From a virus (Duplodnaviria; Caudoviricetes): a stretch of DNA of 34,067 nucleotides. The notes beneath the pieces are model-generated. The model was not told the origin of the DNA. It searched no databases and worked only from the letters and a program-made list of their open reading frames with translations. Shown here in pieces: positions 159 to 34,067 of the stretch (within the stretch, counting starts at the first letter, position 1; every line of letters starts with the position of its first letter). The DNA lies in IMG/VR virus record IMGVR_UViG_3300021959_000189, positions 1 to 34,067 of that record; one strand, given 5' to 3'. A program made the translations under genes and the position numbers.

Positions 159-335
159 ATGAGAATGACCACCGAAATTGAAGAAGCATTAAACGCTGTT
201 TGGGAAGCAATGGACTCTCACAGAGAAAATTGCATTTCAGGCGATGAATACACCAAAGAGCGCATAGAGCTAGGAGCACAATTTAACCTGATAGAATCCA
301 CATTAGCGGAACTATGGGAAAAGCAAAATAGCTAG
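159..335 (+). CDS. Small acidic hypothetical protein (58 aa)
   Basis: Hand-translated MRMTTEIEEALNAVWEAMDSHRENCISGDEY...ELWEKQNS*. Starts 1 nt after the methyltransferase stop. Confidence 0.7.
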   Translation: MRMTTEIEEALNAVWEAMDSHRENCISGDEYTKERIELGAQFNLIESTLAELWEKQNS

Positions 336-393
336 GCAAGGGTGATCCTTACACCCTATGAAGCGGGTTGGCCCACCGTGCCGAAAACGGGCC
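335..393 (+). ncRNA. Candidate structured RNA (3-way junction + pseudoknot), copy A
   Basis: P1 GGCA/TGCC, P2 AGGGTG/CACCCT, P3 CGG/CCG; loop GGCCC pairs with downstream GGGCC. Covaries with copy B. Confidence 0.65.
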
Positions 394-397
394 TTCT

Positions 398-424
398 AGC
401 CTCCTTTTTAGGGGGCTTTTTTAT
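398..424 (+). terminator. Intrinsic terminator ending the early operon
   Basis: AGCCTCC-ttttta-GGGGGCT hairpin followed by a T-tract, at the convergence of the + and - operons. Confidence 0.75.
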
Positions 425-1588: not shown

Positions 1589-1612
1589 AAAAAAAGCGCC
1601 ACTAAGGGCGCT
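1589..1612 (-). terminator. Intrinsic terminator
   Basis: On the minus strand, AGCGCC...GGCGCT hairpin followed by a T-tract. Confidence 0.65.
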
Positions 1613-1688
1613 CTAAATCGTCTTTCGCTACTGCGATAAGCCCACAGACCACAAATATTATCATATAAATTAACACTTTACCCACCAC
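1602..1688 (-). CDS. Small membrane peptide (start uncertain)
   Basis: Hydrophobic VLIYMIIFVVCGLIAVA followed by charged KDDLERP. A TTGTGA-16-TATAAT promoter-like sequence lies upstream and a terminator directly downstream. Confidence 0.4.
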   Translation of the reverse strand: MVGKVLIYMIIFVVCGLIAVAKDDLERP

Positions 1689-1771
1689 CCATAACCAATG
1701 AGCCGCCATTATAGAGACTCTGCGTAGGGTCACAAATGTATTAGCATTATTCATTACATGCCTGTCGGTAA

Positions 1772-1829
1772 TGACCCGTTGCCGCCACGGGTGGGTCAAG
1801 CCCGATCACAGGTCGAGGGAGACCTTGGC
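1772..1829 (-). ncRNA. Candidate structured RNA (3-way junction + pseudoknot), copy B
   Basis: P1 GCCA/TGGC, P2 AGGTC/GACCT, P3 CGGG/CCCG; loop TGACCC pairs with downstream GGGTCA. Confidence 0.65.
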
Positions 1830-2137
1830 TAAAACGGAATGTCTTCAGTAATGGGTGCAGCGGTAGGGGCAGCGTTAGACTGTGGTGCTGCTCCATCGGT
1901 ATAAAATACTTTCACATTCCCCAGAATGGGTGGGCGTTCCTCACCAGCCTCTCGCTCTTCTTTACTCTGCGACTGGGCTATGAAGCCATTGTTTTCGTAC
2001 TGATCCTGCTGGTCAGTGTCGATAAACGTGGTCATGTTCAGGTAGGTAGCGGTGCTGCCATCCTTCTTGGTTACTGTATTCATGCGAGACTTGTCGATTT
2101 TGGTCACATCGAGTGACACGGATACACCTATTTTCAT
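1829..2137 (-). CDS. Single-stranded DNA-binding protein
   Basis: Small beta-rich protein with an Ala/Pro linker and acidic C-terminal tip EDIPF; follows the annealase and exonuclease. Confidence 0.75.
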   Translation of the reverse strand: MKIGVSVSLDVTKIDKSRMNTVTKKDGSTATYLNMTTFIDTDQQDQYENNGFIAQSQSKEEREAGEERPPILGNVKVFYTDGAAPQSNAAPTAAPITEDIPF

Positions 2138-33277: not shown

Positions 33278-33489
33278 ATAATATAATCTATAATACAATA
33301 TCGGTGGAATATGGTGATAAACCAAGCGAGCATTGCCTATATTGGCAAGATGAAGATGGCAATAATTCAGAGTTTATATGTGTAGTTTATGGCTTTGAAA
33401 ATGCTGTTAGGGTTGCCAACGGCATAGCCTACGAGCAAGTAGAGTATGTTAAGCACCCCCTTAACAATTTAGATGATGTGGCAGTATGA
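33274..33489 (+). CDS. Acidic early hypothetical protein
   Basis: GGAGG RBS; ATGA overlaps at both ends. Confidence 0.7.
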   Translation: MNNIIYNTISVEYGDKPSEHCLYWQDEDGNNSEFICVVYGFENAVRVANGIAYEQVEYVKHPLNNLDDVAV

Positions 33490-34067
33490 GAGTATTGATT
33501 GCATGCGAATATAGCGGGAAGGTAAGGGAGGCTTTCCGCGCCCTTGGCCATGATGCTTGGAGTTGCGACCTGTTACCCTCCGACAATCTAACCGACTACC
33601 ACTACACGGGCGACTGTTGGCCAGTCATATCTGAGGGCTGGGATTTAATCATTATGCACCCCCCATGCACTGCGCTGGCCGTATCAGGCAATAGATGGTA
33701 TGGAAAAGGAATGCCCAAACATCAACAGCGCCTCGACTCGATAGAGTGGACTCTAGCCTTCTATGAACACGCCAAAAAACACGCACCCCGCGTAGCCTTC
33801 GAGAATCCCGTGGGCGTACTACCTATTAAACCTACCCAATACATCCAGCCGTGGCAATTTGGCCACCCTGAGAGCAAAAAGACGGGCCTATGGCTTCACA
33901 ACTTGCCGCCACTAGTCGAGACCGATAACGTAAAAGAGCTATACGACACACTTCCAAAAAATCAACAGCAAAGGTTGCACTATTTACCACCAAGTGCTGA
34001 CCGCTGGAAAATCAGATCAGAGACATTTACCGGAATAGCAGAGGCGATGGCCTCTCAGTGGAATAGC
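33486..34067 (+). CDS. Phage C5-cytosine DNA methyltransferase-like protein (runs off the window end; continues at 2..157)
   Basis: Absent from the ORF track; translated by hand as MRVLIACEYSGKVREAFRALGHDAWSCDLLP...WDLIIMHPPCTALAVSG...FENPVG...IQPWQFGHPESKKTGLWL...RSETFTGIAEAMASQW. It has an N-terminal SAM-binding strand, catalytic PPC (motif IV) and ENP (motif VI). ATG overlaps the upstream stop. Confidence 0.8.
   Translation, partial: MRVLIACEYSGKVREAFRALGHDAWSCDLLPSDNLTDYHYTGDCWPVISEGWDLIIMHPPCTALAVSGNRWYGKGMPKHQQRLDSIEWTLAFYEHAKKHAPRVAFENPVGVLPIKPTQYIQPWQFGHPESKKTGLWLHNLPPLVETDNVKELYDTLPKNQQQRLHYLPPSADRWKIRSETFTGIAEAMASQWNS
33914..34067. repeat. Terminal overlap, right copy; last 28 nt are a variant of 127-154
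   Basis: 33914-34039 equals 1-126. Then come synonymous differences GCG/GCA, TCA/TCT and CAA/CAG, and divergence after the TGG codon. Confidence 0.95.

Follow-up and report, generated by a model that had tools for sequence, protein, structure and literature searches.

Genome context of the two copies

The window, by which we mean the whole stretch of 34,067 nucleotides analysed here, is a 34-kb virus record rated 100% complete. T7-like structural genes are combined in it with a lambdoid-like early region (Rep, NinB, NinG, Sak and exonuclease). Among cultured phages, the best match of its capsid protein is to Methylophilales phage MEP301 (44%), and the public runs matching the window best are marine and estuary metagenomes. 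Positions 1-157 partly repeat the methyltransferase-like gene at the end of the record (33486-34067), with a slightly different C-terminus; the repeat is consistent with a circularly permuted assembly.

Two segments of the window share one fold, an observation of the initial annotation that we confirm; all of the helices that it named are present in both copies, where it had placed them. Copy A (335..393, plus strand) is identified by its sequence, a descriptor, a covariance model score of 65.9 bits and covariation. It consists of P1 (335-338/379-382), P2 (339-344/352-357) with the loop AUCCUUA (345-351), a junction strand (358-363) and P3 (364-366/376-378), whose loop L3 (367-375) provides the 5' half of a pseudoknot (370-374/389-393) and leaves A375 unpaired; a linker (383-388) precedes the 3' half. 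Copy B (1773..1829, minus strand), identified by sequence, descriptor and a score of 70.2 bits, is built in the same order from P1 (1829-1826/1787-1784), P2 (1825-1821/1814-1810) with the loop UCCCUC (1820-1815), a junction (1809-1805), P3 (1804-1801/1791-1788), L3 (1800-1792), a linker (1783-1778) and a pseudoknot (1797-1793/1777-1773) that can be extended by a U-A pair with position 1772. The descriptor, which combines the pairing with an AAC anchor, has copies A and B as its only matches in the window and gives 2 matches in 20 dinucleotide shuffles of it; covariance models find no further copy across the whole genome.

Both copies begin on a stop codon. Copy A follows a 58-aa ORF (159..335, plus strand) that has no PHROG match, and P1 starts with the G of that ORF's UAG stop (333-335). 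A predicted intrinsic terminator (398..423, plus strand; stem 398-417, then a U run) lies 4 nt to the 3' side, so the element sits between stop codon and terminator as first described, and relatives carry a terminator at the same place behind their A-type copies. Copy B likewise starts on the G of a UAG stop, a point absent from the initial annotation; here the stop ends a 102-aa gene (1829..2137, minus strand) that comes after the Sak and exonuclease genes and belongs to PHROG 24909 (annotated function unknown). The position of this gene and the acidic DIPF C-terminus of its product suggest an SSB-like protein. Downstream of copy B, the minus strand of the region 1593..1735 has a sigma70-like promoter (1735-1708) and a terminator (1614-1593), both predicted. 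It also has a hydrophobic ORF that stops at 1602 and is short, with 20 codons when read from the second ATG or 51 when read from 1757. These features place copy B near the 3' end of the recombination operon. The short hydrophobic ORF unit (1593-1735, minus strand) could encode a small membrane peptide or be an sRNA.

Which bacterium does the phage infect? Of the 202 genomes in the family holding the SAR92-clade MAG L371, 2 gave any match, and 1 has a Sak relative (63% identity) whose contig also bears a motif copy. A Porticoccaceae MAG contains a phage-like contig with the motif (L362). A SAR92-clade bacterium is the likely host, and the call is no firmer than that because MAG bins may include free phage contigs.

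A covarying RNA family

Does the fold extend beyond the window? Eighty viral loci were fetched by means of the SSB-like protein, and more were collected by sequence patterns in viral, genome and metagenome contigs. The resulting structure-anchored set, selected for pairing, comprises 143 instances and 101 distinct sequences of 47-70 nt, with 15 pseudoknot variants among the latter. This homologue search, which the initial annotation had proposed, supports the fold: the eight top corrected mutual-information scores in the set all fall on predicted pairs. Covariation shows these sequences to form an RNA family with a three-way junction of P1, P2 and P3 and a P3 loop that pairs with the 3' tail.

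In an alignment of 69 distinct sequences to a model lacking the pseudoknot, 98.6% of pseudoknot cells are paired, compared with 31-54% in slid-register controls, and four of the five pseudoknot pairs undergo double-sided changes; retention of the nested helices in the same alignment (P1 97.1%, P3 92.8%, P2 87.4%) leans towards the model. Among sequence-pattern matches, a 5-bp pseudoknot is present in 88/121 viral and 41/121 metagenome cases. The variable P3 pair is kept in 87/88 and 41/41 of these pseudoknot-bearing matches, compared with 12/33 and 35/80 of the rest; among short-linker matches, 8/120 have the pseudoknot. We also followed the pairs on a tree of the upstream protein comprising 43 loci for which pairing was not required, near-duplicates and motif-less loci being left out. 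On this tree the changes number 4, 6 and 6 for pseudoknot pairs 2, 3 and 4 and 7 for the variable P3 pair, every one of them double-sided; recombination between gene and motif could inflate these counts. A-C is tolerated at pseudoknot pair 1 in six of the 43 loci. The original argument from compensatory changes to selection on structure is thus borne out by strong covariation both in the model alignment and on the protein tree.

Details of the two-copy description fare differently in the larger family. P1, first described with 4 bp, has a covarying core of 3 bp; its fourth U pairs with P1 in 75 of the 101 sequences, or with P3 in 75 of the 101. The RUGA junction is shared by both window copies but is not invariant in the family. 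Invariant in the structure-anchored set are the G of P1, the GG/CC of P3, the U before the pseudoknot, the last C-G pair of the pseudoknot, the lone A that follows the pseudoknot and the C at the end of the linker; the search patterns had fixed most of these bases, and they are also invariant in the 69-row model alignment. P2 measures 4-6 bp in 83/101 sequences and is absent from 9/101; core-only copies without P2 (L677 and L754) each lie about 10 nt after a stop. The strand from one pseudoknot half to the other is 14-17 nt long, and 15 nt in 62/101, under search patterns that limited the linker to 8 nt. In a complete circular record of 6062 bp (G315, locus L467), a stop and an RBS flank a core-like copy that has no obvious P1; this copy may be real or a chance match.

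Single-sequence folding does not distinguish the two copies from shuffles (z -0.23 and 0.16). The MFE structure given by the folding program, which handles no pseudoknots, is a different fold, at -19.6 and -19.2 kcal/mol for the two window copies compared with -14.8 and -14.3 kcal/mol for the nested model. Since the nested model is about 5 kcal/mol less stable than the rival hairpin in both copies, folding depends on the unmodelled energy of the pseudoknot. The rival MFE hairpin, which pairs the P3 3' strand with the tail, was rejected: it shows a single double change, and pairing fails in 48 of the 138 cells of its two outer pairs. An outer helix P0 between the flanks pairs no better than shuffled sequence.

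Rfam 15, a check suggested in the initial annotation, gave no match in the window at the gathering threshold; with E relaxed to 10, no family aligned to the motif either. Eighteen homologous loci returned tRNAs only, and eight further loci, at E up to 1, returned nothing save an unrelated snoRNA model outside the motif. Six motif stretches compared by blastn with 50,697 cultured phage records had short chance matches or none. We met no published description of the motif in the accessible portions of the literature, and it may be listed among published candidate motifs; it is not shown in the accessible parts of the Minerva preprint or of PMC10085705 and its supplement, and the accessible content of four supplementary files of PMC10690425 holds no motif words or contig names. 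A model search of 151 family and 151 order genomes returned the known copies and one false match inside a gene (L384), with 35 of several hundred to 1800 candidates per genome scored, a depth that does not amount to absence. Small shares of four RNA runs contributed assembled contigs of relatives. We conclude that the motif represents a real, strongly covarying and uncatalogued RNA family carried by marine phages and by some SAR92-clade chromosomes. Its first characterisation as an uncharacterised phage structured RNA stands as regards the strong covariation and the lack of an Rfam match, but not as regards its restriction to phages.

Genomic distribution

Where do the copies lie? Among the 122 non-chromosomal copies with at least 150 nt upstream, 112 have a stop codon ending an ORF of at least 40 codons within -4 to +13 nt of P1, compared with 416 of 6100 random positions in the same loci, a control that overstates the significance of the placement because in compact phage genomes any intergenic element abuts a stop. 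Five of the 143 instances have no upstream sequence; the stop overlaps or abuts P1 (distance 0 or 1) in 76 of the 138 copies with enough of it. On the other side, a start with an SD-like word lies within 32 nt downstream in 40/122 copies and a terminator follows in 15/122. In 30 of the 46 cases with a start within 45 nt, the gene begins 16-20 nt after the knot.

The SSB-like loci were chosen by protein only and number 79, L085 being omitted as a partial match. The motif lies downstream of the SSB-like gene in 54 of them (four weak and diverged, E 0.21), a GC-rich hairpin takes its place directly after the same stop in 19, and six have neither, four of these ending within about 300 nt. Many SSB-like loci carry, as the window does, a second, terminator-linked copy on the converging operon. 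The second, likewise conserved element found in the motif's slot in 19 loci (L054, L064-L068, L073, L074, L076, L078-L080, L082, L084, L086-L088, L091 and L093) occupies the first 100 nt after the SSB-like stop. It comprises an A-run, a GC hairpin with the shape of an opposite-strand terminator, an invariant CCAUAGGA and then a second hairpin with a GGGGAA loop, and it carries 2-5 GGA motifs; the five loci scanned had no Rfam match.

Other elements accompany the motif. Upstream in the same operon, an AT-rich hairpin and an H-type pseudoknot (UGUGU/ACACA) lie directly before an RBS in L036 (2525-2595, plus strand), L039, L056, L057, L059 and L061. A dyad overlapping a promoter lies 16 nt after the motif in 15 of the 143 instances (L044-L053, L158, L181, L227, L228, L231 and L507); we take it to be LexA-box-like, which suggests that the operon beyond it is under SOS control. 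The space between tRNA-Ala and tRNA-Lys in a complete phage of 108 kb (L462) is taken up by two copies in tandem, from 1-2 nt after the former to 4 nt before the latter; L255, L268 and L544 also have tandem or multiple copies. In Aliidiomarina maris (L351:2035-2330, plus strand; G005:C1:263753-263908), some 250 nt of Rfam-negative sequence, apparently structured, separate the motif from a second csrA downstream, and a Cellvibrionales MAG (L376:1501-1563; G002:C41) has a diverged second copy after a three-codon minigene downstream of tRNA-Arg. Record G313 (L650:4260-5760) holds a tRNA cluster that includes a permuted tmRNA call; several of its spacers are tRNA-like or rich in hairpins and have no Rfam match.

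In GTDB species genomes, 41 pattern matches were obtained, of which eight score as members: one in a prophage-like region of A. maris, one on a phage-like Porticoccaceae contig and six chromosomal copies. The MAGs of these six bear the labels Porticoccaceae, SAR92, HTCC2207, Cellvibrionales or Gammaproteobacteria; where queE was seen, the copy lies upstream of it. Two more genome loci and eight metagenome contigs, assigned by sequence likeness, bring the chromosome-type copies to 16. None of the 16 has a stop nearby, and those inspected have a predicted sigma70-like promoter about 10-30 nt upstream.

The P2 arm

The distinct P2 sequences show a modular, swappable arm: most phage copies carry a UCC-rich loop, some have one of GNRA type, and others lack P2 altogether. 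UCC is present in 26 of 56 distinct phage P2 loops, where shuffling each loop gives an expectation of 15.7 and 0 of 2000 shuffles reach the observed count, a test that overstates independence because the loops are related by descent. GGA is found in 0 of 72 P2 loops, and the phage loops are pyrimidine-rich. Half of the chromosome-type copies (8/16) have a P2 hairpin that fits the CsrA consensus at 11 of 12 positions, against a background of 0/7128 windows (consensus from the accessible text of PMC6550530). The other chromosome subtype has a weak P2 and 1-4 GGA motifs, and neither it nor the phage copies match that consensus. CsrA genes are present in four of the five host-group genomes.

The same eight CsrA-site-bearing copies resemble Csr/Rsm sRNAs in having several GGA motifs (3-5 each), some of them in CsrA-consensus hairpin loops (PMC6550530, accessible text). 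They also share a conserved upstream dyad. Features of the Csr/Rsm sRNA family are GGA motifs, a terminator end, the binding and titration of CsrA, and GacA/UvrY-dependent transcription. In contrast, the host copies end in a pseudoknot, not a terminator, and phage P2 loops carry the complementary UCC; Rfam Csr/Rsm models had no match to L371, L353 or L374. The upstream dyad is imperfect, reads TGTGAC-N5-TATAC and lies 40-80 nt upstream in L336, L360, L371, L387, L388, L558, L584 and L595; presumably it resembles a GacA/UvrY box.

Comparison with known RNAs

The topology proposed at the outset, that of class 1 exonuclease-resistant RNAs (xrRNAs) with a P3 loop pairing downstream of P1, holds: as class 1a/1b xrRNAs are described in the accessible parts of PMC8374639 and PMC7749634, both have a three-way junction whose L3 pairs with a strand 3' of P1. 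The 14-17 nt between the pseudoknot halves come near the 15-16-nt ring that PMC8374639, in its accessible part, gives for flavivirus class 1 xrRNA. In class 1 xrRNAs the ring encloses the 5' end, and a 5'-3' exoribonuclease halts about 5 nt before P1. As far as the available source texts extend, the invariant A and C flanking the motif's closing pair recall the A-C contacts of the TABV xrRNA, and both kinds of RNA are found after reading frames and in tandem. Unlike xrRNA, the motif has no unpaired junction strand between P3 and P1, only 8-9 bp of its ring strand are paired, and it occurs in dsDNA phages and bacteria; RNase J was over the cut-off in none of five incomplete host-group genomes, the control being over it in 8/14. 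A feature of class 1 xrRNAs is Pk1, Watson-Crick pairing of the 5' end with junction nucleotides (PMC7749634, accessible part). Pairing of this type between the 5' flank and J2/3 reaches at least two pairs in 37/92 sequences (30.1 in shuffled sequences, with 40 of 1000 shuffles reaching the count) and at least three in 10/92 (10.8 in shuffled sequences), with no covariation signal. Because the Pk1 test failed, we do not class the motif as an xrRNA. The motif's 5' flank is variable, and pair counts cannot reveal an xrRNA-type base triple (U-A-U or C+-G-C) at the junction.

The junction of the motif is like that of the luteovirus H-type pseudoknots ScYLV and BWYV, where, in the accessible text of 10.1101/2024.12.07.627321, stem 1 ends in GG/CC, one unpaired A lies between the stems and an A-rich loop ends in C just before stem 2. 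It departs from that type in its covarying stem 2 of 5-6 bp, in a stem 1 lengthened by P1 with P2 as an insertion, and in its location after stop codons without fixed spacing to a slippery site. Compact coaxial pairing is also a property of pseudoknots that obstruct RNase E scanning, and the motif stands at gene boundaries in RNase E hosts; according to the accessible text of PMC9943677, H-type pseudoknots impede scanning in proportion to coaxial length (8, 11 and 15 bp were tested). The pseudoknots of that study are engineered inserts of viral or human origin. A dedicated phage pseudoknot family with a role as RNase E obstacle was not described in the literature that we found. Intercistronic stabilising stem-loops, such as REP elements and that of puf, occur at gene boundaries of bacterial transcripts.

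Possible functions

Why would a phage place a knot behind its stop codons? We tentatively favour, at somewhat less than an even chance, a barrier to host RNA-decay enzymes that marks and shields message ends. P1, P3 and the pseudoknot would stack into about 13-14 bp, and the invariant GG, A, CC and AC bases would form a minor-groove junction like that of luteovirus-type pseudoknots. Paired 3' ends stall 3'-to-5' exonucleases; those arriving from a downstream cut or the transcript end would halt a few bases after the paired 3' strand, and the ORF upstream of the knot, in many cases the SSB-like gene, would thereby be protected. The knot would also hinder RNase E that scans from a 5' monophosphate further upstream, so that the following RNA would be protected; RNase E/G is present in 5/5 host-group genomes. 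A ribosome terminating on the overlapping stop may melt P1 and P2 transiently, but not the P3-pseudoknot core. As a by-product the knot, together with the terminator in copy A, may survive as a 60-90-nt RNA displaying the P2 loop.

The slot right after a stop codon is where stabilising stem-loops sit, and the tie to the upstream stop, together with the swap with a plain hairpin in the same slot, favours protection of the upstream message. The promoter-driven host copies and the UCC loop indicate a surviving small RNA instead. The initial annotation had offered a nuclease block, a self-cleaving element or a released sRNA; of these, the best fit is a barrier to nucleases that may also be released as a small RNA. 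Against the barrier stand the 16 chromosome-type copies, which have no nearby stop and therefore no upstream reading frame to protect, and copy A, whose 3' end is already served by a terminator hairpin. Nor is the UCC-rich P2 loop explained by a simple barrier.

Could the RNA itself be the product? Decay would then free a stable small RNA whose P2 loop acts in trans, the phage UCC(U) loop pairing with GGA motifs (Shine-Dalgarno sequences and CsrA sites) and some host copies binding CsrA through an AGGA hairpin. This is unlikely, if far from negligible, and it is compatible with the barrier. The enrichment of UCC and absence of GGA in the loops argue for it, as do the near-perfect CsrA sites of half the chromosome-type copies alongside host CsrA genes; tandem, multiple and stand-alone promoter-driven copies fit a product RNA, and the loop of copy A could form 6 bp with a host hairpin loop (-6.7 kcal/mol). 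UCC is kept in seven of the eight distinct loops before terminators, which counts for action in trans because no gene lies there for cis control. Several lineages nevertheless have GNRA-type loops or lack P2, the kinship of the loops weakens the shuffle test, and hairpin loops of 6-9 nt make short seeds. The UCC loop might alternatively act in cis, hiding the downstream Shine-Dalgarno sequence until a terminating ribosome melts P1 and P2. The frequent overlap of stop and P1, the preferred start 16-20 nt after the knot and matches over 6 bp between loop and SD in L097 and L104 would suit such translational coupling, which is improbable all the same: loops pair with their own downstream region no better than with shuffled partners (3.15 versus 3.22), UCC is no commoner before genes (13/23 distinct loops) than before terminators or elsewhere (17/33), and coupling is inapplicable to copy A, tRNA spacers and host copies. 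The type III antitoxin idea led to a ToxN search of five genomes, in which neither ToxN nor the control had a match.

A new small self-cleaving ribozyme, cutting just 5' of P1, is quite improbable. In its favour are the size, the three-way junction with its pseudoknot, and some dozen invariant bases; we also take the helix order to resemble that of twister. Twister has two pseudoknots and cleaves at a conserved UA, which lies in an internal loop that an outer helix closes. UA precedes P1 in 61/143 instances, the outer helix is no better than shuffled and there is no Rfam match. Theta (minimal HDV-like) ribozymes are, like the motif, phage-borne and about 55-65 nt long, and cut within 5 nt of tRNA 3' ends (PMC10879173, accessible part); the one tRNA-linked motif locus seen is L462, whose first copy starts right at the tRNA-Ala 3' end. 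Compared with theta as that source describes it, the motif lacks the nested double pseudoknot (P2 with the 3' end, and P1.1) and the conserved catalytic C opening J4/2, and it occurs in marine rather than gut phages. HDV-like ribozymes, theta included, cleave themselves 5' of G1. Its single pseudoknot joins L3 to the tail, and the start of the linker is variable, as is position -4 (A in 53 and C in 42 of 101); with no conserved C heading the linker and no second pseudoknot, it is not HDV-like. The 5' flank is variable, no outer P0 is supported, P1 and P2 can be missing, and the invariant bases are gathered where the helices meet, a place at which a structural role is enough to account for them; none of the Rfam ribozyme models scores, and there is no catalytic core of a known class. 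A riboswitch aptamer, for example for a queuosine precursor, is suggested by the SAR92-clade copies about 190-205 nt upstream of queE (TIGR04508) on the same strand. Compact H-type knots are a common aptamer fold, which also counts for it. It is nonetheless very unlikely. The full motif is present in only 4 of 20 queE loci, which makes the link to queE positional; one locus has a degenerate motif, and the motif is missing from 15, among them a close relative in which the promoter-like region near queE is retained. Phage copies lie beside unrelated genes or terminators rather than que genes, and no expression platform is conserved. preQ1 riboswitches keep a constant place in the leaders of queuosine genes and match their class models; the motif had no such Rfam match. 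Least credible of all is a stimulator of stop-codon readthrough or frameshifting: the motif comes after UAG or UAA and shares the GG, unpaired A and C before stem 2 of luteovirus frameshift pseudoknots (10.1101/2024.12.07.627321, accessible text), but the stop-to-P1 spacing varies from -4 to +13, readthrough extensions would range from 2 to 75 codons, and copies also occur in tRNA spacers and untranslated host RNA.

Significance

What would such an element mean for phage and host? We describe an uncatalogued RNA family common to marine phages and an abundant host clade, and at about 58 nt it is fit for biochemical and structural tests. A broader proposal, speculative and rather improbable as a whole, is that it is the bacterial equivalent of what flaviviruses do with xrRNA and sfRNA: a ring-like knot that survives decay would scaffold an exchangeable hairpin, which SAR92-clade hosts would load with a CsrA-binding GGA loop and their phages with the complementary UCCU loop. 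The phage form, set free from early mRNAs, would pair with ribosome-binding sites or neutralise GGA-bearing host RNAs. The exchange of P2 between UCC in phages and a CsrA site in hosts offers a testable route by which one scaffold may become a regulator on both sides of an infection. If the knot blocks decay, dsDNA phages of RNase E hosts would punctuate their polycistronic messages with a dedicated xrRNA-like knot, and a natural obstacle to RNase E scanning would become testable.
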